Virus record (IMG/VR): IMGVR_UViG_3300024307_000003
Span: 1-64,000 of that record
Strand: one strand, 5' to 3'
Source of the DNA: a virus
DNA length: 64,000 bases
The notes beneath the pieces are model-generated. The model did not search any database, was not told the origin of the DNA, and was given only the letters and a program-made list of their open reading frames with translations. Positions 26,771-50,545 of the stretch are shown piece after piece (positions within the stretch are counted from its first letter, which is position 1; each line of letters opens with the position of its first letter). Both the position numbers and the translations under genes were made by a program.

Positions 26771-26804
26771 AAAAGAAAGGGGCTATTAAGCCCCTTTTTG
26801 TTTT
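26771..26804. terminator. bidirectional intrinsic terminator
   Basis: AAAAGAAA-GGGGCT-atta-AGCCCC-CTTTTTGTTTT between the convergent tRNA and late transcripts. Confidence 0.7.
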
Positions 26805-27340
26805 GTAAGCTCTTTAACTACATCATCCTTGCTCTTGGAACTAGCTGAGCTTCCATAGAAGAACTGAAAGATAGCTCCCAACACTGTACCAATCAACACC
26901 CCTACCACTGTATCCACCACCCGAAGGTTGGCTTGAGGGATAGGGTATATTGTCACTAATGTTAGATAAAGGCCGATGAACAAACTCCATCCACCAGCAA
27001 AGTAATACACAAATCTCTTGCTAAACACATCATCCTGTGCCAGCGCAGCTTTCTGCATATCTCTAGCGTCTTTAACATCAGCCAAGCGCATTTGCTCAGC
27101 TATGTGCTCATTGGCCATTACAGCTTCTCTAAGCCTTACAACTAATTCAGGCTGTGTAGCTAAGGCTTTGTCCACATCATTTAATGTAGACATTCCTGTA
27201 ACGTCCTGAACGATATTACTGAAAGCAGAGGCAGCCTTAGCTGCCTTTGTTTCCTTTCCAGAGAAAATTCCTACGATCTCCGGGAGATATTTAGCTGCCA
27301 ATCCTACGACAGCAGCAGAAACAGGCTCCATCATCATCAC
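26786..27340 (-). CDS. probable holin (GTA 3TM-holin-like)
   Basis: LADVKDARDMQ...two TMs...IFQFFYGSSASSKSKD; last gene of the late operon. Confidence 0.65.
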   Translation of the reverse strand: MMMMEPVSAAVVGLAAKYLPEIVGIFSGKETKAAKAASAFSNIVQDVTGMSTLNDVDKALATQPELVVRLREAVMANEHIAEQMRLADVKDARDMQKAALAQDDVFSKRFVYYFAGGWSLFIGLYLTLVTIYPIPQANLRVVDTVVGVLIGTVLGAIFQFFYGSSASSKSKDDVVKELTKQKGA

Positions 27341-27669
27341 TCCTGTTCTGCTTTACGCTTTGGGAGAGAGCGTAATATTTCTGTAAGGGTTTTATCCATC
27401 TTGTCTATCTTTCCCTCTAGTTTTTCTTCCATCTTCCCTAGTTTGTCTTCCATGTAGTCCCGCAGATAGGTGTCTGTGATAGAAGTCTTCTCTAGCACAG
27501 CCATCTGAATCTTCAGAGCAGAAACCTCCTCCGTCTGCCGGAGTTTATCTGCCTCTTCTGTTTCTTTCCCTCGTTTCTCTTTTTCCAACCACCACCAGAG
27601 GATGGGCGCCCACAAAAACTGGGCGAGAAAGTTTAACCATTCTGGGATCATTATTGCTTCCGCTGTCAT
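27337..27669 (-). CDS. membrane-anchored coiled-coil protein (lysis-associated?)
   Basis: N-terminal hydrophobic segment plus coiled coil; next to the holin. Confidence 0.55.
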   Translation of the reverse strand: MTAEAIMIPEWLNFLAQFLWAPILWWWLEKEKRGKETEEADKLRQTEEVSALKIQMAVLEKTSITDTYLRDYMEDKLGKMEEKLEGKIDKMDKTLTEILRSLPKRKAEQE

Positions 27670-28271
27670 GCTGTTCTAATCCACATATAAGCTATTAAGG
27701 TGGGCTGCATGTTGTTGTGTGCCTGACCACTACCTGTGGCAGTAGTGAGAGCTTGTGGGCCAACACCAACACTTGAAAGTTCAGCACCATTAACAATAGG
27801 AGATTTAATAGCTGCATCCACTCCCTTCTGATTACCAACATAGTGGGCGTGAGAGGGGAGCTGAGCTGTGGTAATGATCTCTTGGTAGGAACCAACAATT
27901 TCTCCAGCAGTGAGAGTTCTTGATTCCCCACGAGAGTCAGTGTACGTTCCAGCACCAGCGATGGTTAATCCTGGACGTGCTGTCCAAGTTCCATATCCAA
28001 GTATTACACCGGGATTCCTATTATCAGTTGCATTGATATAAATACTCCCTATTGGAAGCTGTCCAGCAACAATTGTTCTACTATCCAAATCTTCAATGGC
28101 TTTGTAAAGCTTGTAGAACATCCAGTTCAGCTCTTCAGCATTCAAAAGCTGTTCCCAATCTACACCCGAAGTTTTTAATCCAGCAACAGGCTCTATCTTG
28201 TTAGGGCCGTTTGCATTAGGGAGGGTGACATCGTTGATGGCCCATTCTAATTCTGTGAGATCAATAGCCAT
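27666..28271 (-). CDS. tail fibre/baseplate protein
   Basis: LNAEELNW N-terminus; LPIGSIYI...GYGTW; QLPSHAH...HNNMQP...YMWIRTA. Confidence 0.8.
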   Translation of the reverse strand: MAIDLTELEWAINDVTLPNANGPNKIEPVAGLKTSGVDWEQLLNAEELNWMFYKLYKAIEDLDSRTIVAGQLPIGSIYINATDNRNPGVILGYGTWTARPGLTIAGAGTYTDSRGESRTLTAGEIVGSYQEIITTAQLPSHAHYVGNQKGVDAAIKSPIVNGAELSSVGVGPQALTTATGSGQAHNNMQPTLIAYMWIRTA

Positions 28272-28864
28272 TATGCAGCCTCCCCTCTACAAAGCACTTC
28301 AATAAAAAATCCTCTAACCACAACGGTAGCGTTGGCATCCGAATTAATTTGAATACCACTAGGATCATCTCGTGTTGAAACATTTCCAACAGGGAAATTC
28401 ACCCTTGCTGAAATTTGTTGTTCTCCCGCAGTTTTAAAGTGTAAAGATAACATCGGGAGAAGGAACTCGTCTCCACCACCGGGGTCTGTAATAACTCGGA
28501 GGTTCACTGTCTGATTAGCTCCAGTGGTGGTGACATTCGCCAGAACATTTAAATGAACCATGTCCCCAAGACTCAACTCACTCAAACTCAATCTGTTAGT
28601 GGAAGAATTCCAAAGATCCGTTACACCTTCAGGGAGATACGCATCTTCGGACATTGTTCCGGCATCATCATTCGTGAGATAATACCAAGTGCTTCCACCT
28701 GTCACCGCAATGGGAGAACCTGTTGTAGCTGTGTCAAATACAGATTGCCAACCACCACGTAATTTATCTGTTTTTGCTACACGCGTGTGCAGCTCAAAGA
28801 TATTGTTATCCAGTTCAGCATACGTCAAGGACGCGCCTTTATCTTGTCTATATACGATTGTCAT
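28271..28864 (-). CDS. tail fibre-associated protein
   Basis: RQDKGASLTYAELDNN fibre-anchor-like motif. Confidence 0.65.
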   Translation of the reverse strand: MTIVYRQDKGASLTYAELDNNIFELHTRVAKTDKLRGGWQSVFDTATTGSPIAVTGGSTWYYLTNDDAGTMSEDAYLPEGVTDLWNSSTNRLSLSELSLGDMVHLNVLANVTTTGANQTVNLRVITDPGGGDEFLLPMLSLHFKTAGEQQISARVNFPVGNVSTRDDPSGIQINSDANATVVVRGFFIEVLCRGEAA

Positions 28865-29554
28865 TTAAATAGGCTCTACATATCCAGCGTCCACATATCC
28901 GATTTGGACATACGGTAATTTGTTTGTTGTTCTTTGTGTCGGAACAGGAACTGATGCTCTTAATGATGGCATTCCTCCAGCATCTCCTCCCACTTGACTT
29001 CTACTTCCAAACCCCAGAGCGTTCGCGTTATTTGCAAACCCAAAAGGTGATCCTGTACGAGGAAGCTTGATTACACGATAAGCGGTGTTAAGAGGAAGGA
29101 TTCCAATAATCTCTTGGATGGTTTCATAAGAAGGAAGTATTTCTCCTCTCAATCCAATATCCACTTGGCGATATAATCCAGAATAGAGCAAAGGATAAAA
29201 CCCTGTACTAACGTACAAAGCTTGTGACACAGAGTCTCTTGTTCCATCTGCTCTTCTTTTTATAGAAGCCAAATAGATAGCAGATCTGAAATCATTATCA
29301 TCGTCTACAGTACGTTGTAACCCTATCTGTCTTCCAATCTCTGTAAGTTGTTCTCCAACAGCTAATGGTAATCTACGAGCTTCAGCAAGCTCCACTAACA
29401 ACGCCTCAAACTGTTGTTGTGTTTTGGCCACCAAGTTAATGATGGCCATGTAGATTTGTTTGTCTTGGAATTCATTCAGGACAAGAGCTGTAGCATCGTC
29501 AATATAGATAGGATTTGTCTTTATGAAATCAACAGTGTTTACATTTGTTGTCAT
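28865..29554 (-). CDS. baseplate wedge protein (DUF2612-like)
   Basis: AVGEQLTEIGRQIG...DDNDFR...PFGF. Confidence 0.8.
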   Translation of the reverse strand: MTTNVNTVDFIKTNPIYIDDATALVLNEFQDKQIYMAIINLVAKTQQQFEALLVELAEARRLPLAVGEQLTEIGRQIGLQRTVDDDNDFRSAIYLASIKRRADGTRDSVSQALYVSTGFYPLLYSGLYRQVDIGLRGEILPSYETIQEIIGILPLNTAYRVIKLPRTGSPFGFANNANALGFGSRSQVGGDAGGMPSLRASVPVPTQRTTNKLPYVQIGYVDAGYVEPI

Positions 29555-29567
29555 TTGTCAATTCCCA

Positions 29568-31055
29568 CTACACTAATTGATTGAAAGATACACCCCCCGG
29601 ACGAAGCACAAAGAGTTCTGTGAAGTCTGGAGTTTGATCTGCTGTTATGAAAAGAGAATCTGCATCAGAAGACCTCTTGGTGTAAACATTCACAGCTACA
29701 ATTCTATTACGAGTGGCTGTGTTAAGGGCTACGAATACAAGTTGTGTGTTATACAACATCTCTCCTATCCGAATTTCATCAAAGAAATCCTGAAGGCCAG
29801 CAACCATTGCCGACCTCTCTAAATTAGAGAGGGGAACTCTATCTGTCGTTCTGTAGTCAATTCTAACATCAACATTCACTTGAACTGCTTTGGAATGTCG
29901 GATTGTCTCCGTTCCACCATCAAGGGTGTTGACTGTGTAGCTTGTGCTTCCACTTGTCTGCGTGTTAATTGGTTTAGACGCATATATAGCTTGTGAGATT
30001 TCCGCAGTAGAACCACCAAGCACCACAACATGAAAAGACAGAGCATCAGCATCATCCCGGTTAACAGCCGTAGGGTTGTCATAGATAGTTACCTTCTCTA
30101 CTCCACCAACACGAAAGACATTACTCACTACGCCATCTCGGGTAGAAGCCCCTATAGCTTGTATTTCAGAGAAATATCTGTTTCTGTATTCAGCATCTGT
30201 CTCCACCTCACTACCAGAGTAGAAAGGAAGGACATTTGTGGCATCTACAAAGCCCGTAAATGTTGGAGTCATTGCATCAATACCACCAGAAGCCAGAGGA
30301 TAAAATCCGTCTGTCAAACTAGTGACACCCACTGCTGCCCACTTGTGACCAATAACGGGTGTTATCTGAAACTCTGTTTGTTCCGAAAGTCCTATCAATT
30401 GCTTTGAAACGACATAGAATCCAACGTATAAAGTGTCTTCTGTTGTGTCTACAAATACTCTGTCAATATTCCCATCTGTGTAAGTGAGAAACATTGAAGA
30501 AATTGCATCAAGCATTAGTCTCTTACTAGCATCTGTTCCATCATTCGTAAACACGAAGTTCTGGGTAGCTCCGTCAATAGTACTCAACAGGACAACAGAA
30601 TAGGATGTATCTGTGATTTCAGAGATTGAAAGCTTATATGCAACCACTGTAGTGGTTAATAGAAAATCATCATCAGCTTGATACACTTTACCATTAGAAG
30701 ATGTAAACTGAGTTGTGTCTGGGAGGATTGTATTGTTAGGAGCATCTTCGTCCATTTCAATGTAGACAATCCCTGTCCCCGGTTGCTTCCCTCTTCGATA
30801 CACCCCATTCTTTGAGAAGATGTCATCAAGGTAGATCCCCTCAGCACCATCCAGACGCTGAGAAGACCAAATAGCTTCCGCTACACGATTATTGTCATTT
30901 TGAAGCTTTGCCAGAATAGCCGCAATTTGTCCTAGAGGATTATCATCCCCAAGTTGGGCTTCCACTCCCATATCTTGCCGAAACATATTCTTGATCGTTT
31001 CAAGCACTTCTTCATAGGTTTCTCTTTCAAAACCATATCTTGTTATTTCAGCCAT
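29568..31055 (-). CDS. baseplate J-like protein
   Basis: AEGIYLDDI...GSEVETDAEYRNR...VVVLGG. Confidence 0.9.
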   Translation of the reverse strand: MAEITRYGFERETYEEVLETIKNMFRQDMGVEAQLGDDNPLGQIAAILAKLQNDNNRVAEAIWSSQRLDGAEGIYLDDIFSKNGVYRRGKQPGTGIVYIEMDEDAPNNTILPDTTQFTSSNGKVYQADDDFLLTTTVVAYKLSISEITDTSYSVVLLSTIDGATQNFVFTNDGTDASKRLMLDAISSMFLTYTDGNIDRVFVDTTEDTLYVGFYVVSKQLIGLSEQTEFQITPVIGHKWAAVGVTSLTDGFYPLASGGIDAMTPTFTGFVDATNVLPFYSGSEVETDAEYRNRYFSEIQAIGASTRDGVVSNVFRVGGVEKVTIYDNPTAVNRDDADALSFHVVVLGGSTAEISQAIYASKPINTQTSGSTSYTVNTLDGGTETIRHSKAVQVNVDVRIDYRTTDRVPLSNLERSAMVAGLQDFFDEIRIGEMLYNTQLVFVALNTATRNRIVAVNVYTKRSSDADSLFITADQTPDFTELFVLRPGGVSFNQLV

Positions 31056-31063
31056 ACGATTCC

Positions 31064-34000
31064 TTAAATCTTCCCTGAGTCATACAGAGAAATTATTTTT
31101 GCGTCACTCAAGACAGATTCAAATGTTGCTGCTCGTTCAATAGTTCCAGAGAAAAGAACAGTGACATTTGGCACTATTAAGCTATCTGCTCCATAGAACA
31201 CATGTTGTGCCCCTGTTGGAATATTCTCCGCCGAGGACCAAGAACCATCTGTTGTAGAAACAGTAGATACACACTCAACTCCATTTATAAATAGCCGCAG
31301 AGTATTAACAGCATCAAGATCAACAATAGCGGTTATATGGTATGTCGTGTTCAAAGATAAAACATTATTTCCATAGTTTTCACTGAAACTTCCGCTTGTT
31401 CCTTCCGTTACTAGACTAAGAACCCCAGTGTTACTCATTGCTAGAGTTAACCCTGTACGCCCAGCAGAAATCCCATTACCGTTATCTGACAGTCCCATAA
31501 TCGGAACAGGGAAAGTGCTAGGAGCAAATGCTGTTGGTCTCACCCAAACGCTGAATGTCCGCTGTCTTCCGTTTGTGGCTGTGAAGTTAGTTCTTGGTGA
31601 ACTATTAAATCCACTTATCCCACCAATGCTCCCACGAGTAAGGTCAGTTCCAGAGAAGCTACCATTTCCGTTGTAAGACAACCTGAATCCAGCAGTAAGA
31701 GATATATCACTCTGATAAGCATAGTCCTGCTCCAATTCAAATCTAATATAAGAACTTGGGGTGGATTCAAAAATATAATTGTCATGCAGTGTACGATTAC
31801 CAGTGTTGAATAACAGTCTTGCATTGGCTTCAGATATTGTACTGTTGTAGGTACTTATCTTCTCGAAAGTTCCTGTATAGTTTCTTCCAACTTGAATACT
31901 GTCATAATCACTATTTCCGGGACTCAAAGATTGGAAATATCCTCCAAAGGTTTGTACAGCAGAAACTCTGCTAGCAATAGTTCCCGGCCAGTTTCCAGTG
32001 TATATCTGACACTTGTTAGTTGTGTTGATCTGGTTTGTATCCAAACTCACAGCAATGAAAGTATTCCATCCTGCTGCTAACACTCCATTACCTGATGACC
32101 ATTGAATATAAGCTCCGTTATCGTGGGTATTGTAGTTATAGAGTCTAAACAGAATAGCACCAGCACTGGTGATTCTCAGATCCCAATACACCCAGTTTGT
32201 TGTACCATCAAAGTTGTACCCAGCCATTAAAGACGCGTCTGTTAATGTTGCCGGTAAAGATGTCCAGAAAGAGATTCCTAATTTACCGGAGCCAACTACT
32301 GGAGCAACAGGTAACACATCTGTGGGATAAAGGAACACAACAGGTTCAATTCCATTTAGAGAATTAGCTCTTGCTGAGGTTGTTCTACTGCCGTCTCGAA
32401 TGGTTCCAGCTTGACCCACCAAAGCAACTGATCCATATGTTGCAAGATTTGCTAATGGGTTAACATACTCTCTAACATCTGCTGTGCTGTAATCATTCAT
32501 CGGATAGAGTGTTTGAGGAATACGAGAAGCTTTCATAGCTTCTAGGTCATAAAGACCACCGGGGAAAATGTTCCCAGTTGTCACACTATTTCCATTTAGG
32601 ATAGTTGCGGACATTGGTTTAACTTTTCCAATTATCCCAGAGGTTGTGCTTATTCCAGATATGGTACTAGATAATCTCTTAGTTGCCGAGCCAGTTAATG
32701 CTCCAGTTCCTGTTATAGTAGCTACCAAGCGTTTTCTCATTGTCCCAGATAACGCACCACTACCTCCAATAGAGGAACTAACAAAAGTTCTCAGTCCAGA
32801 TGCTGTGGTTGTGCTAGAGCCAACTATTGTAGCTGCCATCTGCTTCACTTTAGTGAAATTAGCTGTAATGCTCCCTAAACCACTAATTGAAGATGAGCCA
32901 TATTTAATCTTTCTCAGATTAGCACTTACTGTAGAAGTACCAGCGATAGTTGTGTTACTTCCTTTATTAATAGAAGCTACGACACTGTGGACACTTGCAA
33001 TGTTAGCGCTAAACCGCTTGGTGATATTGGCCACTACGTTGGAAGTACCAACCATTACCAATCCAGAAGACTTGTTGATGCTTCCTGTAATGGCTCCATT
33101 TCCTGCTATAGTGGAAACCAATCGCTTGTTCAGAACACCGGAGGTTGTTGTGGTTCCTGTCAGAGTTGCAGACAAGGAGTATGCCGGGCCTGCGCTTACT
33201 AAACTTGTTCCAGCAATTGTAGCAACCATGTTCTTTGCTATAGCTGCTGTTACGTTGGAAGTTCCAGAAATAACTGTTCCGCCACCAAACGCTGGGGCTG
33301 CTGTTACATCCGCTGTTCCAGAAATTGTGCTGCTCATCTGTTTGGACACAGACGCTGTTACAACTCCAGCTCCTGTTATGGTGCTGGCTACTGGTTTATA
33401 CACAGTAGCAGTTAATGCTCCGCTTGCTGAAATAGCAGCAGACATCACTGTAGACATATTGGCAGTAATAGCGCCAGAAGCTGTTATCGTAGCAGATATG
33501 GCTTTAACACCATTACCCGCTGACAATGCGCCACTTCCTGTAATTGTAACGCTCTGGAATGTTCTGACAGCCGTTGCTGTAACAGAAGAAACTCCTGCTA
33601 TAGGAGCGGAAACAAACGATATATCATCCTTGGTGAGGATAGCTGATATTCCAGAGGTACCTGCAATGAACGCCGCCATAGATTTGATAGACGGAGTGAC
33701 AGGCGGTAAATATTCTTCTTGCGGAGGAAGAGTGTACACAACTTCCTGTGATGGGGTGAGGGCTACACGTCCGCGCTCTGTTCCACCAAGTGTTCTCACA
33801 ACAAATTCTAAATCATATTGTCTGGAGTTTCTGTTGTATCTGGATTCAAAGAACACCAGCTCCAGCACTTCGGGGTTCAAGAGAATTGTTCTTCGATACC
33901 AAGCATCCACTTCCAATTTGGTGATTCCGGGCTGTGCAATATAATCCCGGTTAATTCCACCAAACTGTGTGTTATTAAACCATTCCCCCTTAAAAGCTCT

Positions 34001-34114
34001 CAGCGTAACCTCAAGCTCTTGTCTGACACGTTTGTTCGTGTCTCTAACAAGGGACAACCCACCATTCTGGTAGGATAAATCCCCCGTAGTGGGGTCGATA
34101 TATAAATCGAACAT
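31064..34114 (-). CDS. gp25-like baseplate protein fused to a Ser/Thr/Gly/Ala repeat stalk and LamG-like domains
   Basis: aa 1-130 MFDLYIDPTTGDL...RQELEVTLRAFKGEWFNNTQFG; aa ~145-515 18-21-aa repeats; C-terminal TFSVWVRP...TYHITA...LFING LamG pattern. Confidence 0.8.
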   Translation of the reverse strand: MFDLYIDPTTGDLSYQNGGLSLVRDTNKRVRQELEVTLRAFKGEWFNNTQFGGINRDYIAQPGITKLEVDAWYRRTILLNPEVLELVFFESRYNRNSRQYDLEFVVRTLGGTERGRVALTPSQEVVYTLPPQEEYLPPVTPSIKSMAAFIAGTSGISAILTKDDISFVSAPIAGVSSVTATAVRTFQSVTITGSGALSAGNGVKAISATITASGAITANMSTVMSAAISASGALTATVYKPVASTITGAGVVTASVSKQMSSTISGTADVTAAPAFGGGTVISGTSNVTAAIAKNMVATIAGTSLVSAGPAYSLSATLTGTTTTSGVLNKRLVSTIAGNGAITGSINKSSGLVMVGTSNVVANITKRFSANIASVHSVVASINKGSNTTIAGTSTVSANLRKIKYGSSSISGLGSITANFTKVKQMAATIVGSSTTTASGLRTFVSSSIGGSGALSGTMRKRLVATITGTGALTGSATKRLSSTISGISTTSGIIGKVKPMSATILNGNSVTTGNIFPGGLYDLEAMKASRIPQTLYPMNDYSTADVREYVNPLANLATYGSVALVGQAGTIRDGSRTTSARANSLNGIEPVVFLYPTDVLPVAPVVGSGKLGISFWTSLPATLTDASLMAGYNFDGTTNWVYWDLRITSAGAILFRLYNYNTHDNGAYIQWSSGNGVLAAGWNTFIAVSLDTNQINTTNKCQIYTGNWPGTIASRVSAVQTFGGYFQSLSPGNSDYDSIQVGRNYTGTFEKISTYNSTISEANARLLFNTGNRTLHDNYIFESTPSSYIRFELEQDYAYQSDISLTAGFRLSYNGNGSFSGTDLTRGSIGGISGFNSSPRTNFTATNGRQRTFSVWVRPTAFAPSTFPVPIMGLSDNGNGISAGRTGLTLAMSNTGVLSLVTEGTSGSFSENYGNNVLSLNTTYHITAIVDLDAVNTLRLFINGVECVSTVSTTDGSWSSAENIPTGAQHVFYGADSLIVPNVTVLFSGTIERAATFESVLSDAKIISLYDSGKI

Positions 34115-34136: not shown

Positions 34137-34721
34137 TTACGGAATGGGAGTGCTTGTTGGGCTACCCGGAGAAGCTGAAGTGTGTTTATGTGTTTCAATC
34201 GGTAAACCATTCAGAATATAACTTCCTGTGTGTGTAATCGTTCCAACGATCTCAATATTCCCATCCAAGCCAAGAGCAATACGAGAAGCACCACTCTCAA
34301 TAACAATCTTCCCCGGCTCTATAGGCTTCTCATCAGGGAGAGCGAAGATACAAGGGAGGGCAGCTATAGGGTGAAACTCATGTGTCTTCAGATCATCAGG
34401 GATAGAGACAGAAGCCCCATTCTGAAGCAGGCTACCGTAGTCCCTATCTGAGAACAACACCAGCACCATATCCCCTACACTCACAGGAACGGTTATACGG
34501 CTCGTTCCACCTCCCCCGCTATACACCATAAGGGGTACGTTAGAAATAGGCGGGAAGGGCTGGATATGGCCATCCTTGTACTTGGTTTGTGTCAGGATAG
34601 TGCCTGAGATTCTGTTCCCCACCACTTTAGTGACAACAGCCGGCTTGATCGTGTGAATGTGCCGCATGTAGTTCATTAGGAACTTGTTTAAAATATACAC
34701 AGGATCATTTGTATTAGACAT
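34137..34721 (-). CDS. baseplate central spike (Gp138-like)
   Basis: ITVPVSVGDMVLVLFSDRD; C-terminal HKH. Confidence 0.85.
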   Translation of the reverse strand: MSNTNDPVYILNKFLMNYMRHIHTIKPAVVTKVVGNRISGTILTQTKYKDGHIQPFPPISNVPLMVYSGGGGTSRITVPVSVGDMVLVLFSDRDYGSLLQNGASVSIPDDLKTHEFHPIAALPCIFALPDEKPIEPGKIVIESGASRIALGLDGNIEIVGTITHTGSYILNGLPIETHKHTSASPGSPTSTPIP

Positions 34722-34774: not shown

Positions 34775-35707
34775 TTACACATACACGACTACTTCATCCG
34801 CTTCCATGTTCGTTACCCATTCCCCGCCTTCCAAGGTTCCAGAGTGAACCACTGAGGTCACTTTATACCCACCCTTGTAAAATCCATCTGAGGATTCCAC
34901 ATACACGGTTTGATTAGGCATAATGGCTCCATTCAGGAGACACTTGATTCTAACGCTCTTCTTGGGGGACGTTTTGTCTTCTGGGTTGGTGCCCTCACTC
35001 TTGTTCAGAGGAGCAATCTCCAATAACCCGCTTTGAGCGGTTAGCTTGATGATTTCTTGTCTGGTGCCTTTATCTTTAGGCATCCAACAGACAGCTCCCT
35101 CTTGCACACTGAAATCCGAGTTGGTTATCTTGGCTATTCTCCGGAGCTGTTCACAGCTACTCCCGGCAGCATAGAAGTCACTCTTCGTCACCATCTCTGG
35201 GACGTTCAGCAAGCCTCCAGCTTTAGGAAGGCCCATATCCCCTACGATGTCTTCTACAATCGTCTTGTAGGGCGTCCCAAGAGGGTAGGAGCGTACAGAA
35301 ACAGTTTCCCGCATGTTGACACTACCATCCCCAAGAGAAAGCTCTAGAATGCTGTCAGGACTATTGAATGTATATGTGTAGCTTTCAACTGTTCCCTTGA
35401 ATATCTCTTTGATTCCAGATTCATACCCAGCAGAGAGGATTGCCCCCAAGGGCTTACCATTCAAGTTTTCAAGATACCCGAGAATTTCCTTGGGCATGTT
35501 GTAGATTGTGATGGAACCACTATTGGGGGAATCTGTGACGCTCTTGCGGATATTGAATGAGATGTTGTGTTCTGTCAGGCGGTAGGCATTGGTGGGACTC
35601 TTGGAGTCTACTAACTTCCCAATATCCACCACTTCCGGTGTGACGTAGGTGCGCTTCACTTCAATCGGTTTACCAAAATCCAATTGATACTTACGATTAA
35701 ACAGCAT
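34775..35707 (-). CDS. baseplate hub protein
   Basis: FNRKYQL...SITIYN...LSAGY...IFKG. Confidence 0.8.
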   Translation of the reverse strand: MLFNRKYQLDFGKPIEVKRTYVTPEVVDIGKLVDSKSPTNAYRLTEHNISFNIRKSVTDSPNSGSITIYNMPKEILGYLENLNGKPLGAILSAGYESGIKEIFKGTVESYTYTFNSPDSILELSLGDGSVNMRETVSVRSYPLGTPYKTIVEDIVGDMGLPKAGGLLNVPEMVTKSDFYAAGSSCEQLRRIAKITNSDFSVQEGAVCWMPKDKGTRQEIIKLTAQSGLLEIAPLNKSEGTNPEDKTSPKKSVRIKCLLNGAIMPNQTVYVESSDGFYKGGYKVTSVVHSGTLEGGEWVTNMEADEVVVYV

Positions 35708-36077
35708 CTCCTACACTCTCCGCCCAAGCGTTGATATCTTCATCTTCGCTAACAAAAATTAAAAAGAATCTACCATCCCGGAAAGTTCCTTCTTTAGAAG
35801 GTCTTCCCCATTGATCATCCATATCTATTACTTTTAGTAGTCCTTTAGGAACTTCATCATAAGCTTTATAAGGAACAAGAAGATCAATACCATTCACAAT
35901 CTTGAACTTCACTCTGGGGTCTTGCCCCAAGAGACCAACGTAGCAATACCAAGCATCTTCAAATGAGTTGTAACGATACCGGAAAGCATAATATTGATTT
36001 CCTATCTGAACACGTACACGTTGATCCTGATAGAGGTTGTTTGAATCAGGCCCACGCATTGGGAGGACAATCGGCAT
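35697..36077 (-). CDS. baseplate/virion structural protein
   Basis: FRYRYN...WY...KIVNGIDLL; syntenic position. Confidence 0.75.
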   Translation of the reverse strand: MPIVLPMRGPDSNNLYQDQRVRVQIGNQYYAFRYRYNSFEDAWYCYVGLLGQDPRVKFKIVNGIDLLVPYKAYDEVPKGLLKVIDMDDQWGRPSKEGTFRDGRFFLIFVSEDEDINAWAESVGDAV

Positions 36078-36697
36078 TAGTTGCTCTCCTGTGATTTCAT
36101 GTTAGCTTCATATTGTGCATCAGCAGCTTCTTTGTCATTAAGGAGAGGAACTATTTGGGAATGGTTCTTACCATCATTGAGATCGGTTGGTTGTTCTGCT
36201 CCGTTGTCAGTTGTCCCTTTCCCACTTTCTCCTATTTTAGCAGAGTCAATAATTGTCACTGTTATAGATTGGCTCTCAGCTAAACGAATAACTTGGATGT
36301 CACAATTGAAGTTCAAGGCTTCCATAGACTGTGCTGTGAAATCTGTTGTGTAGGTTTGAAGAATACAATTAGTAAACAGATCAAACTCAGTGACAACATC
36401 AAAAGGAGTTCTTGAGAACCAAAGTTCTTTCAACAAAGCATGAGCTTCGTCAGCCCTATTAATGTTGTTATAACCCACTTCATTATTAGGGTACTCAAAC
36501 ACTGGATGATTGGAGACACTTCCTACAATACTGATCGTAGGATTCTCATTGAACACATGGTCACTAATATTGGAACGAGTGTCCACAGGATAGGAGGTTA
36601 TTTGATTGGTAAATGTCTCCTTAACACTCATCACTGCATCAGCAACAAATGATTTTCTGGAGTCATTTCCTCCTGCCATAAAAACTGTTATTGGCAT
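36077..36697 (-). CDS. tail tube initiator/Dit-like protein
   Basis: ITSYPVD...ISDH...IVGSVSN, directly after the tape measure gene. Confidence 0.75.
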   Translation of the reverse strand: MPITVFMAGGNDSRKSFVADAVMSVKETFTNQITSYPVDTRSNISDHVFNENPTISIVGSVSNHPVFEYPNNEVGYNNINRADEAHALLKELWFSRTPFDVVTEFDLFTNCILQTYTTDFTAQSMEALNFNCDIQVIRLAESQSITVTIIDSAKIGESGKGTTDNGAEQPTDLNDGKNHSQIVPLLNDKEAADAQYEANMKSQESN

Positions 36698-36701
36698 AAT
36701 A

Positions 36702-38561
36702 TTATTCCGTTGTTGCTGTGTTAATGGCTGGCCAAGGATTACTCTGCTTTATTCTTGTTTTTAAATCTTCAGAGGGAGTAATCTGAATACTGAGGTTATT
36801 TTTGATAGATTCAGCAATCGTAGACCCCATCTTTTCTATATAGCCAAGAATTGCTTGGTCTGAAATCGGGGAAGCAAGTCCCATAGCTCCAGAAACTTTA
36901 GAACCTAAGTTCCCACTAGCTATTCCCAAATAATCATGAATCTCCTTGCGAACATTTTCATCCCCAGCAAGGTAATAAAAGACATCATGAAATAGAGCAG
37001 GAAGAAGTCTAGCATATGTAGTGACCATCGTAACTAACCAAGATATGGCACTACCAAAAGCATTAAGTAATGGACTAACCATCTTTAAGAAGAATCCAAG
37101 GTTGTCAAACAGGAGCATTAACCTTGGTTCCATTGATTTAAAGAAGGAGTTCATTGTGTCTGCCCACACCATTCCAAGCTTTGATTTCTTTTGCTCATAA
37201 GCAAAGAACTCACTATTCTTGAAATCTCCGGATCTTTCTCGCAATACTTTAGCTAACGCTTTAGCAAATTTCTCTGGAGTGAATTCTTTATTCTTTAATG
37301 CGGCATTAAACTCCGCTCCGTTCCCTTTATATCCTAATGCGTTTTGAAGCAACGCAGAGATACCCGGAATGTGTTCTGACATCTGACCATATAATTCTTC
37401 AGAGGTAAGAGCACCCTTACCATACGTCTGCATTAAGGCGTGTAAAGTCAAAGCCAACTGTTCTGCTGATAAACCCATAGCCTTAGAAAAACCAAGCATA
37501 GCTGAGAAGAGTTCACGGGTTTCACCCATATTAAACCCACCGAGATCAGCAGATAATCCAATTTTTGTCCATGCTCTTGCTGTATCAAGAAGACTGGTTC
37601 CCAGCGCCTCAGATTCTTTACGAATGTATGCCAACTCTTTTGCAGAGTTTTTTCCAAAGGCTGTTTGCATCATCATATTCATCTGGTTAAACTTAACACC
37701 AGTTTGTTCAGCGCTCATTGCAAGAGAACCAAAACCCACAGCAGCAAGTCCAACCATTCCGGCTTTTACACTACGCAATCCAGCCATCATTCCAGCAAAG
37801 CCTTGTTTCCCAGCTTTTCTCATCTGAAAGTCAAGGCTAGTTATGCTTTCTTTAAACTTGTTTACTGCGTGCGGGGCATCTCTATATTCTCTAATAATCC
37901 CTTGCAGAGTTTCATGATGGCGTTTCCATAACCCAGAATCGCTCGAAATATTAAGTTCTCGTGTTGATCTTTCAAATGCTGCGCGAGCGCGAAAGATCTG
38001 CATGTCCTGTTTGCTCTTTGCTCTAGCAATAGCCGCAAGCTGGTTAACAGAACCTTTATTAATATCCTTAGTGTATTTAGGAGGAGGAACGTTCAGTTGC
38101 TTATGAAGGTCACGGGCTTCGCTCTTTATCTTCTTGAGCTGAACAGCAAACTCAGCAGAGATCATTTCTCCGCTCTTTAATCTTTCCCCATACTTAGCTA
38201 CAGATTCTGTGAGACGATCCATGTCTGCTTTAGGAATCTTTAGGGTGCGGAAGGTGTTGTGCATACCAGCCTTAGCTGATTCCACCATAGCCTCACGCTT
38301 ACGCATGTTATAGGCAACCTTACCTATGGTGTTCCAATACCACCCTTCTCCTTGTCTTCCACCACCACTTCCTCTGCCCGTTCCTCCAGAGACAGCGGAG
38401 CTTACACGCCCACCAACAGAAATATTAGGAGAGCTTAGGCTCTCCAATTTCTTCTTGAGCTTGTCGATTTTCTTTTCAAACCGATCAATGTTCCGATAAG
38501 CAGATTGATTGATCCTAAAATCTGCTTCAGCGTAAACACTCGCTGCTCTTATTCCATCCAC
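36702..38561 (-). CDS. tape measure protein
   Basis: ALMQTYGKGALTSEELYGQMSEHIPG tape-measure motif; position. Confidence 0.9.
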   Translation of the reverse strand: MDGIRAASVYAEADFRINQSAYRNIDRFEKKIDKLKKKLESLSSPNISVGGRVSSAVSGGTGRGSGGGRQGEGWYWNTIGKVAYNMRKREAMVESAKAGMHNTFRTLKIPKADMDRLTESVAKYGERLKSGEMISAEFAVQLKKIKSEARDLHKQLNVPPPKYTKDINKGSVNQLAAIARAKSKQDMQIFRARAAFERSTRELNISSDSGLWKRHHETLQGIIREYRDAPHAVNKFKESITSLDFQMRKAGKQGFAGMMAGLRSVKAGMVGLAAVGFGSLAMSAEQTGVKFNQMNMMMQTAFGKNSAKELAYIRKESEALGTSLLDTARAWTKIGLSADLGGFNMGETRELFSAMLGFSKAMGLSAEQLALTLHALMQTYGKGALTSEELYGQMSEHIPGISALLQNALGYKGNGAEFNAALKNKEFTPEKFAKALAKVLRERSGDFKNSEFFAYEQKKSKLGMVWADTMNSFFKSMEPRLMLLFDNLGFFLKMVSPLLNAFGSAISWLVTMVTTYARLLPALFHDVFYYLAGDENVRKEIHDYLGIASGNLGSKVSGAMGLASPISDQAILGYIEKMGSTIAESIKNNLSIQITPSEDLKTRIKQSNPWPAINTATTE

Positions 38562-39388: not shown

Positions 39389-39892
39389 TCAAGTTCCCGG
39401 AATTCCACCAGAGATTAAATCTGCTGTTTGCGCTGCTACGCTCAGAGCGCTGTTAGACGCAGTGATCAGAGCTACACCAAACAGGCTATACTCCCTAGCT
39501 TCTACGTTATTACTCCAAACCCGTTGAGGGTCTTTCTGAATCCAGCAGTTAGCTACAAACACGGTTTCAAAAGCCGCAGGATCGTAGATTTCCAGAGTCA
39601 TCAGAGGAGGAACGGACAAGATGTTCCCTACAACTTTTAAATCTTCAAGCTTCTTAATGGAAGGAGAAGTTTGTTGCAAGCGAAGGGTGATAGTACAAGT
39701 GGCATCACGGTTAGCAGCTCGGCTAACTTCCCCACGAGTTCCAACATGATTATTGAAGAATTCTTGATTGCGTTCAACTGTGATCATTTCCCCTTCAGGA
39801 AACCCCACCAACTCAACTTTTGCACCAAGTGCTTTCAATGTGATTATAACGTCATTAGGATCATAAGTCCCAAGTAATGCAGGTATTGGCAT
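39389..39892 (-). CDS. tail tube protein (DUF3277-like)
   Basis: TYDPNDV...VGTRGE...TITLRLQQTSPS. Confidence 0.85.
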   Translation of the reverse strand: MPIPALLGTYDPNDVIITLKALGAKVELVGFPEGEMITVERNQEFFNNHVGTRGEVSRAANRDATCTITLRLQQTSPSIKKLEDLKVVGNILSVPPLMTLEIYDPAAFETVFVANCWIQKDPQRVWSNNVEAREYSLFGVALITASNSALSVAAQTADLISGGIPGT

Positions 39893-39909: not shown

Positions 39910-41235
39910 TCACAATTTGACAAAACCGGAAATTTTGAAAGTATGCCAAACTGGATTAATCGTTGCTTCAAACGGAATATCCGGCAGGAAGCGATTAGCC
40001 TTGTTGTTTGTGCTGATGTCAGATGCTTTAGGTGGGAACACTTTGTAAGAAGCAAGCCACCCGTATTTAACAAACTCATCCAGCACAACATTCATTTCAC
40101 TGACAACTTCACGAATACCTTCATCTCCAGCCAGACGTTTCCCCAAGTCGGAAACACGTTTGATCAAACCAAACACGCCTTCCTGCATACGGGCTTCAAG
40201 AGCCAGAGAACCGTGGATATTATCGAAGAACCTCCCGCTAGAAACCTTACCGTCTTCCATCCAACCCACACCGCCACGACGAACATAAATATTCGCAGAC
40301 TTACCTTTAGCAAAAGTAGCTTCAGTGGTGGAGATAGAATCAACAGCAACACCTATCAGGGTCTTGGCAAACAAGTCACCAGTTCCGGGGAAGGAAGTTG
40401 CGATAGTTCCAAGAGCAGCACCCTCGGCAAATTCTTTATCCGCACCTTTATACGCAACCAACATAACGTTGTCATATTGTGCAGCATTCAGAATAGAGGC
40501 GATGTCAACAGTGGAGCTAGTGAAGATTGCGCTTTCCTGCGAAGACACAAAATAAATCTTCTTATTGGCAGCAGCATATTCTGCAAAGTCTTCAATGTCT
40601 GTTCCATCGTGGCTATCAGACAAAATGAAGAACCATTGATCATTCACATCCACAATTGCACTCAGAGCCTGAGTTGCAGTTTCACTCGAAGTGAAGGACA
40701 GAGTGATGTTGGAAGTGGAAGCTCCCAAGCTCACCTTACCAGTAGAAGCAGGGGCTACAATCAATGTAGAGGTACTATTGGTTGCAGTGACAAAAGAGTT
40801 GATATCTGTGTCAGCTTCAATCAAAGCAGCCAGCCCAGCAGCAATCTCTGTTCCTGTTGCATCAGCATCGGAAGTGTAAGTAAATGCTTTATCATAAGAA
40901 GCACTACCAGTGTTGACACTCAAGGTGATCGTGTAAGCAGTGGTGTTAGCAACGTCAAAGGTTGCTCTGTAATCAGTGAGCGCTCTGCGACCAATTACAA
41001 CTTGATTCGGAGCTTTGATACCTGCAAAAATATCAGCTACCATTTTATAAACCGGGCTACCATCGGCAAAACCATCAGCCAGCAGATCATCAGCATCCGT
41101 ATAAATACGAACACGATCTGTCCACACATTATGTGCAGAAACAATCACTGGGATGTCAAACGATGCTACAGATATTGGTCGATCACCAAGGGTGATAACG
41201 ACATCTACAATATCTTCAATATCAAATGCCATCAA
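39910..41235 (-). CDS. tail sheath protein (DUF3383-like)
   Basis: DIVDVVI...ADGFADGSPVYK...IGRR; position. Confidence 0.9.
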   Translation of the reverse strand: MMAFDIEDIVDVVITLGDRPISVASFDIPVIVSAHNVWTDRVRIYTDADDLLADGFADGSPVYKMVADIFAGIKAPNQVVIGRRALTDYRATFDVANTTAYTITLSVNTGSASYDKAFTYTSDADATGTEIAAGLAALIEADTDINSFVTATNSTSTLIVAPASTGKVSLGASTSNITLSFTSSETATQALSAIVDVNDQWFFILSDSHDGTDIEDFAEYAAANKKIYFVSSQESAIFTSSTVDIASILNAAQYDNVMLVAYKGADKEFAEGAALGTIATSFPGTGDLFAKTLIGVAVDSISTTEATFAKGKSANIYVRRGGVGWMEDGKVSSGRFFDNIHGSLALEARMQEGVFGLIKRVSDLGKRLAGDEGIREVVSEMNVVLDEFVKYGWLASYKVFPPKASDISTNNKANRFLPDIPFEATINPVWHTFKISGFVKL

Positions 41236-43087: not shown

Positions 43088-43468
43088 TTAATCTTCAGTG
43101 ATGGTGATCTGACCAATCGCGAAGGTACCACTCTCACCGTTGTTCAGGGTGATGTTGGAAGTCAGCGGGCCGTAGTACTTAACATTTCCACCTGAACCTG
43201 TTGCTGCTGAAACAATAAAAATATGCGTAGCTGTTGCCCATGCGCCTCCAGAGGCGGTAAAAGTTACAGCTCCTGTATTGGTAGCAGTACTCCCAGTTAC
43301 TGTAAAACTTACAGACTGACGTGTGTAACCATTACCAGTAAGCTCCACAGCCGATATAGTGGTACCAGTGTGAGCATCTGTAGGGGTTGCACTGCACAGT
43401 CCAACCCAGTTGGAACCACCCAGTAAGTTGGTAAGGGCCGCATTTTCTGCGTAATCTGATTTTGGCAT
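43088..43468 (-). CDS. Gp80-like fibre ('bead') protein, paralogue 1
   Basis: SDYAEN.AL...VGL...EL.GNGYTRQSV.F...NTGAVTF...W..ATH. Confidence 0.7.
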   Translation of the reverse strand: MPKSDYAENAALTNLLGGSNWVGLCSATPTDAHTGTTISAVELTGNGYTRQSVSFTVTGSTATNTGAVTFTASGGAWATATHIFIVSAATGSGGNVKYYGPLTSNITLNNGESGTFAIGQITITED

Positions 43469-43844: not shown

Positions 43845-44252
43845 TTACGCCACTTCCAGACGCAGTTCACCGATAGGAAACTGACGTACTTGACCAGAAA
43901 GAACAGTAACCGGAGAAGTTAATGCAAAGTGCATAATGACATTACCAGCACCATGTGTGGCACTATCAGTGATAAAAGCATGTGTTGCAGTTACCCAATC
44001 AGCCGATGCTGTAAAGTTTACTGCACCCGTATTTGCAATACGGTTGTTTGCACCTCCAGACGGGGCACCAAAAGTAACCGCTTGACGAGCATAGCCGTTA
44101 GAGTTGGCCAGCTCGGGAATGGTTGCTCCTGTGTGAGCATCTGTTGTGGCAGACGAAGCCAAACCAACGTACACAGTTGTTGGGGCTGTAATGTTGGTGC
44201 CACGAATCCAATTAAGGATTGCGTTTTCCATATAATCTGAAAAAGCGGACAT
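43845..44252 (-). CDS. Gp80-like fibre ('bead') protein, paralogue 2
   Basis: SDYMENAIL...VYVGL...ELANSNGYARQAVTF...NTGAVNF...W.TATH. Confidence 0.7.
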   Translation of the reverse strand: MSAFSDYMENAILNWIRGTNITAPTTVYVGLASSATTDAHTGATIPELANSNGYARQAVTFGAPSGGANNRIANTGAVNFTASADWVTATHAFITDSATHGAGNVIMHFALTSPVTVLSGQVRQFPIGELRLEVA

Positions 44253-44280: not shown

Positions 44281-45156
44281 CTAAAGAGCGTTCCTGTTAA
44301 TTGAATGAACAAGACGAATTTTTTGTAATCTTTGGAGACGAAGCGATGGGGAACGAATTGTTCCTGAAGCAAATCCACTTCCTAATAGCGATCCTGCTAA
44401 ATCAGACCCAGTAGCCAAGAATGTGGAGTTAACCACTCCAGTTCCTGTTCCAGAAGCTGTCCCTGCAAGGTCAGCAGCTTGAGAAAGGATTGTGTTTCCT
44501 GTTCCAGTGGCTACCCCTTGGCTTTGTCCAGCAAAGCCCGTGTAGAGGCCCCCAGAGGCTATAGCTGTCCCTACGGAGTCCCCAGAGATATAATCAGGTT
44601 GGTCAATTCCCCCTTCTACTAACCCGCTTCCCAGAGCAGAAGCCCTGAAGGTCAGAAGAACTGTTCCTGTTGCGGTAGAGGATGCCACTCCAGAGGCTCG
44701 TAGAGGCTCATAGAGACCTCCTGATACAAACCCGCTACCTAAGCCTTGGGCACTCCATATTTCGCTAAGGGAAGCTCCACCAGAGCCTGTGCCTACAGCA
44801 TCAGCCTTGATGTCTTGGATTGTTGTAACAGAAGCAACGCTTCCAATTCCAACCCCTAGAACCTCTGCTCTAAATACATCATCGTCTATATTTCCATCAG
44901 CTACACCCGAGCCAAGGGCTACGGACTGTAGGGCTGGATAACTTGTGGCCTCTCCTGATCCAACTCCAGAAGCATCAGCTTCCAAGACAGAATAGATTCC
45001 CCCAGAAGCTAACGCTTGTCCTACAGGGGCGGCAGTGAAGTATTGAACGAGGTTGGCAGTGGCAAATCCACTACCGAGAGCATCAGCTTCAAACGCGGGT
45101 AAGTAATCAAACCCACTATCTTCAGGTGTTAGAAAGCTGCGATCTAAGACAGCCAT
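44281..45156 (-). CDS. Gly/Ser/Ala repeat virion protein ('string')
   Basis: ~18-22-aa repeats of A.ALGSG.A.G.L. Confidence 0.7.
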   Translation of the reverse strand: MAVLDRSFLTPEDSGFDYLPAFEADALGSGFATANLVQYFTAAPVGQALASGGIYSVLEADASGVGSGEATSYPALQSVALGSGVADGNIDDDVFRAEVLGVGIGSVASVTTIQDIKADAVGTGSGGASLSEIWSAQGLGSGFVSGGLYEPLRASGVASSTATGTVLLTFRASALGSGLVEGGIDQPDYISGDSVGTAIASGGLYTGFAGQSQGVATGTGNTILSQAADLAGTASGTGTGVVNSTFLATGSDLAGSLLGSGFASGTIRSPSLRLQRLQKIRLVHSINRNAL

Positions 45157-47944: not shown

Positions 47945-49237
47945 TTATCTAGTCCCTAAATCATAGACTTCATATCCCGGCGCGGAAGCTCCGAATCTAC
48001 TATCAGCACCATAATCTACGGAAGTCACTAGAAGATTCTGTTCGTAATCGTAGTAAGCACCGCCAATACGATGGTAGTATGCACTTCGCATAGTGCTATG
48101 GTTCCAGTAACCATGCTTGTATGGGCGTATCATGTGCGGAGGATTCAAACTTGGATTACCAAATGAATCTGCTAAATCCTGCAAATCAAATAACCAGTAA
48201 TAGTTTGCGTATGCTTGATGATAATAAGCGCGGTAAGCTTGCGAGGTATCACCATTATCACTAGGTTGACTTGCACCGTAGCAGATGAATAAACCACCGG
48301 GAGGATTATTGTATGGGGCACGACGGTCTAAATTAGACCCGATACACATCAGTGTATTTGTGTTTGGAAGAATGAAGGCCCCTGCGATTGCTGATAGGTG
48401 ATTCCACAGTTGCGATTGTAAATCATCAGATAGTTGTGTTCCCGGGCCAAAGGGAAAATCCATGGCAGGAGTTGTGCTGATAAGCGTAGGAGTATCGCTT
48501 ACTTGCATATCGTCAAAATTAACCGGCCATGCCGTTGGACCAACAGCCATCCGGGAGATGATAGGCCAATATCCTACCCCACCACACATTAAGTGGGATG
48601 CCCCACCAAACGATGATCGCCATGATGCAGGTAATTTAACTGCGCGCCCAGCACTGCGGGCAGCACCAGAAATCTGGAACATACCGTAACGTGTGAACGT
48701 TGAAAGTGCTGCTGCGTTACGCAATAACGCAGAGTTATATGCATCAAGTGTGTTACTGTAGTAGCTATGACCGCCTAAATGTAATTGTCCTGTTCCTACA
48801 TAACTTGGATCAAGCGGATGCGAAACTGCATCATAGGAAATGGCAGCCAGCTTGAAATCGGCGCTCATGTTGGTGAACTGAGTGTGTAAACGTTTGAACC
48901 CCTGCCGATTAGTTCCAACGTTCATCGCCGCACGATTAGTTGTGTTGACCAGCGCCGGAATGTTGAATTCACCCACCGACTGGCGACCATTTGTTTCAGT
49001 GCCCTGCACAAAAATACGGCCAGTTGCTGTACCTTTGCTGATGCACTGACGACCGATGTAAAACATATCATCTTCGCCGGCAGTGTTTGGGTCCAGTAAA
49101 AAATGACCGATGACGACAGGCGCGGTAACGTCTGGGTCATACAACCCAGCAGAAGCTTGGGGATAAGGTCTGTAAAAACTGTCTGTATGTTCGTAAAGAG
49201 GAACAGTTGAGCCGGGTACAACAATAGTCTTAGACAT
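47945..49237 (-). CDS. virion-associated beta-rich protein (possible propeller/glycan-active)
   Basis: 430-aa ORF; N-terminal 26 aa homologous to those of 49230-50471. Confidence 0.65.
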   Translation of the reverse strand: MSKTIVVPGSTVPLYEHTDSFYRPYPQASAGLYDPDVTAPVVIGHFLLDPNTAGEDDMFYIGRQCISKGTATGRIFVQGTETNGRQSVGEFNIPALVNTTNRAAMNVGTNRQGFKRLHTQFTNMSADFKLAAISYDAVSHPLDPSYVGTGQLHLGGHSYYSNTLDAYNSALLRNAAALSTFTRYGMFQISGAARSAGRAVKLPASWRSSFGGASHLMCGGVGYWPIISRMAVGPTAWPVNFDDMQVSDTPTLISTTPAMDFPFGPGTQLSDDLQSQLWNHLSAIAGAFILPNTNTLMCIGSNLDRRAPYNNPPGGLFICYGASQPSDNGDTSQAYRAYYHQAYANYYWLFDLQDLADSFGNPSLNPPHMIRPYKHGYWNHSTMRSAYYHRIGGAYYDYEQNLLVTSVDYGADSRFGASAPGYEVYDLGTR

Positions 49238-50471: not shown

Positions 50472-50545
50472 ATTCCCTCTTCTTATTTTGGGGAATGCAC
50501 ATTCGTGCAAAGAAGACCCGTCTTGTGCGTGTCTTCGGAATTCTA

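Follow-up and report, generated by a model that had tools for sequence, protein, structure and literature searches.

A sheath initiator continued into a predicted solenoid rod and lectin-type tips: a rare, conserved variant of a phage baseplate protein

Can the sheath initiator of a contractile tail carry a fibre of its own? This small protein is regarded as an unvarying internal adaptor in the tails of phages, in pyocins, in extracellular contractile injection systems (eCIS) and in type VI secretion systems (T6SS). The question is raised by a gene at 31064-34114 on the minus strand of the window analysed here, a stretch of 64,000 nucleotides that comprises positions 1 to 64,000 of the IMG/VR virus record IMGVR_UViG_3300024307_000003. 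The source record, from an uncultured contractile-tailed phage, is linear, 93,686 bp long and estimated to be 69% complete. The gene is a single open reading frame (ORF) of 1016 codons without internal stops. A first-pass annotation, made from the sequence alone, described it as a gp25-like baseplate protein that runs in frame into a repeat "string" and LamG-like tips. Our analysis indicates a well-known baseplate protein in a genuine and conserved, though rare, architecture, its function being proposed from sequence comparison and predicted models. The gene and the parts of its product are as follows.

31064-34114, minus strand: the fusion gene (P0001) for a protein of 1016 amino acids (aa), sheath initiator-rod-lectin; an uninterrupted ORF and the sole sheath-initiator homologue in the 93.7-kb record
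33755-34114, minus strand: gp25-type sheath-initiator core, aa 1-120, from a profile against the Protein Data Bank (PDB), phrog_120 and phrog_4233
33671-33754, minus strand: C-terminal arm and proline-rich junction, aa 121-148, with the motif Y-L-P-P-x-T-P-S-I-K
32564-33670, minus strand: about 20 repeats of 18 residues, aa 149-517, a predicted single-chain beta-solenoid rod of ~10 nm
32300-32563, minus strand: connector, aa 518-605, a short helix followed by low confidence, with a predicted local distance difference test (pLDDT) score <50 in both models
31799-32299, minus strand: first predicted ConA/LamG-like jelly-roll, aa 606-772 (BLASTP to the LamG domain of P0003; structural match 2vw0_A)
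31067-31798, minus strand: second predicted ConA/LamG-like jelly-roll, aa 773-1016 (structural match 5hon_B; match to P0036)

The identity of the N-terminal domain was established by comparison with solved structures. When the 1016-aa protein was searched as a single sequence against PDB chains with phmmer, the matches were sheath initiators only, covering aa 1 to ~133. P7-1 gp87 (9zd7_K) was matched at 8e-12, query residues 3-114 aligning with residues 2-113 of the 123 in the chain, and further matches were phi92 gp139 (4e-9), 9cuy_n and 9mjn_d6, both named "Sheath initiator protein" (4-5e-9), and Pam3 gp21. A profile of the domain built from 93 stand-alone relatives matched eight cryo-electron microscopy (cryo-EM) sheath initiators at 1e-41 to 2e-10 over profile positions 3-135. 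It gave 1e-41 for P7-1 gp87, 1e-38 for phi92 gp139, 9e-25 for Pam3 gp21, and 3e-29 and 4e-29 for the two "Sheath initiator protein" chains (9cuy, 9mjn), while gp022 (9ndy), gp35 (9b45), E217 gp34 (8env/8eon; 2e-10) and gp15 (7kh1) were added by the profile only. The domain was also assigned to phrog_120 "baseplate wedge subunit" (6e-11) and phrog_4233 (2e-18). The Pfam models PF04965 and PF10934 had no match in the record itself; among the 93 aligned relatives, PF10934 (Sheath_initiator) was present in 16 and PF04965 (GPW_gp25) in 12, and PF10934 was precomputed on 10/10 fused homologues obtained by a word-index search. By these sequence comparisons, aa 1 to ~130 form a complete, genuine gp25-type sheath initiator, as the first-pass annotation had proposed.

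A custom hidden Markov model (HMM) of the 93 relatives detected the fusion gene at 9e-44 in the whole 93.7-kb record, the next match having E 0.97. No second, stand-alone initiator gene was found in this record, in the locus of a related IMG/VR contig (L003) or in the locus of Rheinheimera phage Barba5S. As far as the record goes, the fused protein is the phage's only initiator. Structures of its relatives point to what the domain would do. P7-1 gp87, termed "adaptor-2" by its authors, is described as contributing an inserted beta-hairpin to a sheet of four strands shared with sheath termini (PMC13338283), and this insertion is the gp25 role. The phi92 initiator sits on the wedge and pairs with the first sheath ring, and its C-terminal arm touches the wedge and shifts during contraction (PMC13450770).

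The initiator gene is normally a small stand-alone one, as the first-pass annotation had stated: of the ORFs for N-domain relatives at 80 IMG/VR loci, 79 were 100-285 aa long and one 696 aa, and the best 150 matches among 1.84 billion cluster representatives were mostly 104-200 aa. Long forms were recovered from several sources. In assemblies from Logan, JGI and ENA, the word-index search picked out ten long homologues (696-967 aa). An exhaustive search of the 1.84 billion representatives gave 12 proteins at E <= 1e-30, 11 of which combined the N-domain with the repeats (696-967 aa). The remaining one (P0012), a fragment of 557 aa from another sample, is 91-94% identical (two measures) to aa 459-1016, and this near-identical fragment was the only match when the C-terminal half alone was used as the query. 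One further family contig, of 1.6 kb, was added by a metagenome scan. Altogether ~13 independent protein clusters from several data sources share the N-domain, the conserved YLPPxTPSIK junction and the repeats. One member (P0008) is encoded on a 52.9-kb IMG/VR contig, in which the tail module has the same gene-size order and the 16-kb locus (L003) yielded no further initiator. This homologue check had been set beforehand; since the same architecture and junction recur in ~13 clusters and on a syntenic contig, an assembly artefact is very unlikely. The fusion is real, conserved and rare.

The segment that joins the initiator to the rod is itself conserved. It reads YLPPTTPSIK in the 1016-aa protein and YLPPxTPSIK in the family; across 14 family members Y135, P137 and K144 do not vary, and P138 and P141 hardly do. 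Initiators of the phi92 and phiTE type remain homologous as far as aa ~128-135, and by homology with the solved relatives the arm (aa ~115-148) should run outward along the wedge. In the AlphaFold2 model the junction has a pLDDT of 36-40 and is the least confident part. An internal start at the conserved Met146 was rejected, as no Shine-Dalgarno-like motif precedes it here or in L003.

The repeat region following the junction is strongly periodic. BLOSUM autocorrelation over aa 141-525 peaked at lag 18 (0.78), then at 36 (0.56) and 54 (0.15), with all other lags negative, and the lag-18 score over aa 149-517 reached z = 10.3 against 2000 shuffles. A repeat HMM recognised 19 units scoring >0 across aa 150-497 and a weaker, below-zero match at 508-516. 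A set of 30 clean units, taken from 12 members of the family, gave the consensus A-T-I-[STA]-G-[ST]-[SG]-x-[VI]-[TS]-A-x-[IMV]-x-K-x-[ML]-S. The regular array reported at first reading was therefore upheld, with a corrected unit: the period is 18 with a few units of 19-20 residues, not 18-21. Tandem Repeats Finder detected no tandem repeat in the DNA of this region, indicating that the repeat copies are old and diverged; a recent expansion or slippage artefact was rejected on the same result.

AlphaFold2 modelling of the full-length protein from a 16-sequence alignment gave a mean pLDDT of 58, with values of 80-89 at aa ~210-400 and <50 for the N-domain. An exhaustive structural comparison (VIA) of aa 157-509 found its matches among beta-solenoids, including the Ca2+-dependent MpAFP antifreeze beta-helix, regarded as the closest (3p4g_A; Z 22.7, root-mean-square deviation (rmsd) 3.1 Å over 264 residues), curli CsgA (8c50_A; Z 24.7, rmsd 8.5 Å) and phage tailspike beta-helices (Z 15-20); the identity of the rod to the matched solenoids was 11-12%. 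The supposedly flexible "string" is thus replaced by a rigid monomeric rod in the AlphaFold prediction, namely a one-chain beta-solenoid with one 18-residue repeat per coil. The usual rise of a beta-solenoid is 4.8 Å per coil, so that ~20 coils would make a rod ~10 nm long. The consensus alternates in register with such a coil, with the hydrophobic or small positions A1, I3, V/I9, A11, I/M13 and M/L17 pointing inward and Thr/Ser ladders outward, and the rod is predicted to have a small, hydrophobic core under outer Thr/Ser ladders. Each coil of MpAFP has a Ca2+-binding Gly/Asp-rich turn motif. The repeat consensus has no acidic positions, which makes a Ca2+-binding turn like that of MpAFP unlikely, and it has no Gln/Asn ladder. 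The likeness to MpAFP and curli is a resemblance of fold only, without a sequence relationship. The 18-residue rod was also found away from initiators, in the large proteins P0018 (beta-helix/CBM4_9 domains) and P0121 (LamG domains), and the solenoid repeat has no Pfam family.

A second periodic protein was noticed in the window. The 291-aa product of 44281-45156 (minus strand) is Gly/Ser/Ala-rich and acidic, shows a weak 18-residue periodicity (lag 18 = 0.12, lag 36 = 0.07) and had no PHROG match. As a candidate relative of the rod it was rejected, because its consensus (..A.GSG..) differs and the rod repeat HMM did not match it; it represents a different repeat.

Beyond the rod, the connector lies inside a 31%-identity alignment to P0002 and may fold in context. 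For the tips, a Foldseek search with the full model retrieved tandem LamG pairs (laminin LG4-5 at 9e-8, neurexin L2-L3), and a BFVD comparison retrieved LamG phage proteins at 1e-13. In a separate AlphaFold model of aa 521-1016 (mean pLDDT 61), both halves matched ConA-like carbohydrate-binding modules by VIA (Z ~15, ~3 Å). The half at aa ~532-772, for which the model range (aa 529-769) includes part of the connector, matched the NanB N-terminal module (2vw0_A; Z 14.9, rmsd 2.9 Å), and the half at aa ~772-1016 matched AbnA domain 4 (5hon_B; Z 15.6, 3.0 Å, 170 residues) as well as pentraxins and CBM40 (Z 14-15). Sequence identity in the structural matches of the tips was 10-18%, and the binding domains of toxins that appear in the structural lists reflect the common jelly-roll fold and nothing more. 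Sequence searches pointed the same way. By BLASTP, domain 1 matched the C-terminal domain of P0003 at 3e-10, a domain that is itself Laminin_G_3 (PF13385) at 2.4e-13; P0036 (184 aa) matched aa 841-1014 at 1e-11; and domains 1 and 2 weakly share the typical LamG_3 C-terminal strand motif (E 0.015). The language-model neighbours of the tips were Laminin_G_3 clusters (cosine 0.97), and PF13385 was precomputed on the near-identical fragment P0012. The tips are predicted to be two concanavalin-A/LamG-type lectin folds, in line with the first-pass annotation.

Conservation within the family falls from the anchor towards the tip. Identity to the relatives was 45-82% for the anchor (aa 1-148), 25-54% for the repeats and <=31% for the tip. 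The tip was 31% identical to those of P0002 and, in a partial alignment, P0005, and 22-25% identical to P0003, P0008 and P0013 over one LamG domain. The tips of eight other relatives showed no similarity at 1e-3, P0004 being among them despite its 82%-identical anchor. One or two LamG domains were found as tips (one in P0003), as were the repeat tips of P0010 and P0011, which are propeller-like by eye and have Pfam hints at only E 0.013-0.019. The number of detected repeats was 2-9 in the more distant members and up to 19. A conserved anchor with exchanged tips, as seen in these sequences, fits the usual signature of host-recognition or receptor-binding proteins. In one relative (P0009, 891 aa), ~270 non-repeat residues stand in the middle of the solenoid (~aa 294-560) and the repeats resume after them, which looks like a spliced-in domain. 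Initiators extended in other ways were also encountered. P0019 (484 aa) has EPTP/DUF6242 repeats, possibly propeller-type. The metagenomic P0045 (740 aa) joins an initiator N-domain (phrog_120 8e-24) to NCTSP_N (1e-24) and a "non-contractile tail sheath protein" TIM barrel (1e-86), the latter two by Pfam, and is another, unrelated kind of extended initiator. Full-text literature searches found no description of a sheath-initiator/fibre fusion within the literature searched.

Taken together, we consider it probable that the phage makes its sole sheath initiator from this gene as one chain with a built-in short fibre, so that the tail bears six lectin-tipped arms. Six copies of the gp25-type N-domain (aa 1 to ~120) would sit atop the wedge ring, their beta-strands paired with the first sheath ring. 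To judge from solved relatives, the C-terminal arm, ending in YLPPxTPSIK, would run along the wedge to the exterior of the baseplate. There the ~20 coils of the 18-residue repeat are predicted to stack into a narrow one-chain solenoid of ~10 nm, followed by the connector and two ConA/LamG-type domains of ~4 nm each. The rod and lectin heads would project from the upper baseplate rim, six lectin-tipped arms radiating from the sheath-baseplate junction; a monomeric rod fits the six-fold copy number of the initiator. The arms would probably bind host surface polysaccharide in primary or reversible adsorption, and relatives would exchange the tip and keep the anchor. Receptor binding, virion incorporation and an uncleaved chain are what we infer. 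The built-in fibre is supported by the gene order, which runs tape measure, Dit-like protein, plug, hub, spike, fusion gene, J, DUF2612 and fibre. The genes concerned, and the major capsid gene, are located as follows.

39910-41235, minus strand: sheath
39389-39892, minus strand: tube-like protein
36702-38561, minus strand: tape measure, assigned by size, composition and position
36077-36697, minus strand: Dit-like protein
35697-36077, minus strand: Pam3 gp18-type plug
34775-35707, minus strand: E217 gp41-type hub
34137-34721, minus strand: tail spike, the upstream neighbour (PF18352 at 3.7e-8)
29568-31055, minus strand: baseplate J / gp6-like wedge protein, the downstream neighbour (PF04865 3e-6; phrog_6 4e-41)
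28865-29554, minus strand: DUF2612 baseplate protein
28271-28864, minus strand: 197-aa protein
27666-28271, minus strand: short tail-fibre-type protein (201 aa), the last of the baseplate module (PF21939 Gp10_C (T4) 1.7e-17 and tail-fibre PHROGs)
50592-51617: major capsid gene

The placement of the fusion gene between spike and baseplate J, already noted from the sequence, is confirmed by PF18352 upstream and PF04865/phrog_6 downstream. The gaps are 22 nt from the spike gene to the fusion gene and 8 nt from there to the gene of baseplate J, a wedge protein that is the likely partner of the initiator C-arm. The three genes after baseplate J encode 229, 197 and 201 aa, with the Gp10_C fibre domain in the last. 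The module is a standard simple-myophage tail module, and megablast of its 12 kb against 50,697 phage records gave no match. Between the major capsid gene and the neck genes lie three minus-strand genes for proteins of 787 aa (45580-47943), 430 aa (47945-49237) and 426 aa (49230-50510). The 787-aa protein is LamG/Ig-like and matches phrog_3995 "tail protein" over aa 540-706, and its comparison with the tips of the 1016-aa protein showed no similarity; the 430- and 426-aa proteins matched no PHROG family. All three are possible further appendages or receptor binders outside the baseplate module. The absence of a long classical tail fibre, as claimed at first reading, thus holds only for the tail module; elsewhere lie the 787-aa "tail protein" and other appendage genes, and given these, the 1016-aa protein is not necessarily the sole or principal fibre.

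Several smaller genes were noted on the minus strand around these. A pair of paralogous small proteins of 126 and 135 aa (43088-43468 and 43845-44252) both match phrog_240 "head protein" at ~1e-17. Right after the fibre gene, 26786-27340 and 27337-27669 encode proteins of 184 and 110 aa with, judged from sequence, apparent hydrophobic segments and a charged stretch resembling a coiled coil; roles in lysis or as chaperones are possible.

Several points weigh against a built-in receptor-binding fibre. Pfam returned nothing for the 1016-aa protein, whole or in three parts, even at E <= 1. A lectin fold alone proves neither sugar binding nor a role in infection, and true receptor binding may lie instead with the Gp10_C short fibre and the 787-aa LamG/Ig-like "tail protein". 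The chain may also be cut at the junction after translation. Finally, the predictions are of monomers and were made with shallow alignments of 16 and 9 sequences, and the N-domain and aa 518-605 are poorly modelled in them.

An alternative is an accessory role, in which the six arms weakly hold the virion to mucus, biofilm, capsule or marine gel polysaccharide, or stabilise or shield the baseplate, and commitment to infection proceeds through the Gp10_C fibre. Environmental phage proteins very commonly carry LamG and ConA domains as accessory decorations, a dedicated fibre-type gene follows the wedge genes in the same genome, and the occurrence of the rod module in unrelated multidomain proteins (P0018 and P0121, with CBM, GH16-adjacent and LamG contexts) suggests a general spacer. 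However, the tips are swapped between close relatives with 80% identical anchors, as is usual for host-range determinants, and the one protein linking wedge to sheath would be an expensive site for a dispensable decoration. We regard such an accessory or tethering role as unlikely, while giving it serious weight. It is doubtful, too, that the six rods act as a firing sensor, in which the pull of the receptor, passed on through rods covalently joined to the link between wedge and first sheath ring, would act directly on the initiator and trigger contraction without a wedge-borne fibre relay. If this were true, it would mean a shortened trigger pathway for a contractile tail and a portable anchor (initiator, YLPPxTPSIK arm and solenoid) that takes different binding heads.

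The cleavage mentioned above can be put more fully: a cut near the proline-rich junction would release a normal initiator of ~140 aa, and the rod-lectin part would assemble elsewhere on the virion or be absent from it. A nearly invariant junction motif is what a cleavage or recognition site would show, and confidence in the model is lowest there. Nevertheless, Pfam and PHROG revealed neither a protease nor a self-cleaving domain in the 1016-aa protein, no ribosome-binding site precedes the conserved Met146 here or in L003, docking onto the wedge, as in phi92 and phiTE, accounts for the motif equally well, and a permanent fusion was kept in every member seen. We judge processing of this kind improbable. 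An intertwined trimeric fibre (triple beta-helix), in which the six chains form two trimers or a symmetry-mismatched set, would be in keeping with the trimeric state of most phage fibres and tailspikes, with the beta-helical tailspikes among the structural matches (Z 15-20), and with the fact that oligomers are invisible to monomer prediction. It appears very improbable all the same, given that the monomer model is confident and self-contained, its best matches are single-chain solenoids (3p4g, 3.1 Å), each chain has a clear inward hydrophobic register, and six initiators around a ring of ~9-12 nm (phi92) would be poorly placed to braid in threes. That two genes were brought together by chimeric assembly or through the loss of a stop codon is scarcely credible, even for a metagenomic contig, in view of the ~13 independent clusters with the same architecture and junction (including the 52.9-kb contig with the same gene order), the 91-94% identical fragment P0012 from another sample and the lack of a stand-alone initiator beside the fusion gene.

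If the built-in fibre is correct, the initiator position can export a large appendage, which would add a fibre attachment site beyond gp9, gp10, gp7 and wedge-type proteins. Receptor binders would also be available as monomers in six copies, a format that departs from the usual trimers. The arrangement of anchor, 18-residue solenoid spacer of tunable length and head would make a compact natural scaffold that could guide the retargeting of phage tails and tail-like particles in laboratory strains. For annotation, the family shows that pipelines miss the domain: Pfam has no match to the protein, and the cultured Barbavirus homologue is labelled "hypothetical".

Compared with known systems, the N-domain is homologous over its full length to the solved initiators (P7-1 gp87, 9zd7; phi92 gp139, 21vq; Pam3 gp21, 7yfz; E217 gp34, 8eon; T4 gp25/TssE superfamily) and its gene occupies the same position. 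The phi92 (211 aa) and 9cuy (163 aa) initiators likewise have a C-terminal arm that reaches the wedge. However, the solved initiators are 108-211 aa long and end at or near the wedge, whereas here ~870 more residues follow, with a predicted rod and two lectin domains. In phage phiTE, the long tail fibre is held by wedge 2A and the sheath initiator (PMC11972413), so that this location can carry a fibre. The phiTE fibre is a separate, non-covalently bound protein, in contrast to the 1016-aa protein, in which fibre and initiator would be one chain. An extended initiator of 441 aa is encoded by the cultured Barbavirus Rheinheimera phage Barba5S (gp122, QCQ59200.1, L001:7974-9299). Its N-domain is 36% identical, its gene has the same position, and it is the sole initiator of its locus and has a C-terminal extension. 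It differs in having neither the 18-residue rod nor LamG, the extension being Cys-rich and then Ig-like by motifs, without a domain search. This protein is annotated as a "hypothetical protein", and at the match the record MK719746 carries a feature named "ISAs1 family transposase". The anchor point, called unusual in the first-pass annotation, is thus rare in its form and has partial precedents in the phi92 gp139 C-arm, the docking of the phiTE fibre and the 441-aa Barbavirus form. The predicted rod resembles MpAFP region IV (3p4g) and curli CsgA (8c50) in having an 18-19-residue repeat per coil and a narrow single-chain solenoid, and it differs from the former in its lack of acidic positions and from the latter in its lack of a Gln/Asn ladder, at 11-12% identity. 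The predicted tandem jelly-rolls at the distal end are like those of LamG/ConA-tipped phage adhesins and carbohydrate-binding modules (PF13385; CBM40; AbnA domain 4), at 10-18% identity, and what sets the 1016-aa protein apart from these adhesins is its attachment through a sheath-initiator anchor.

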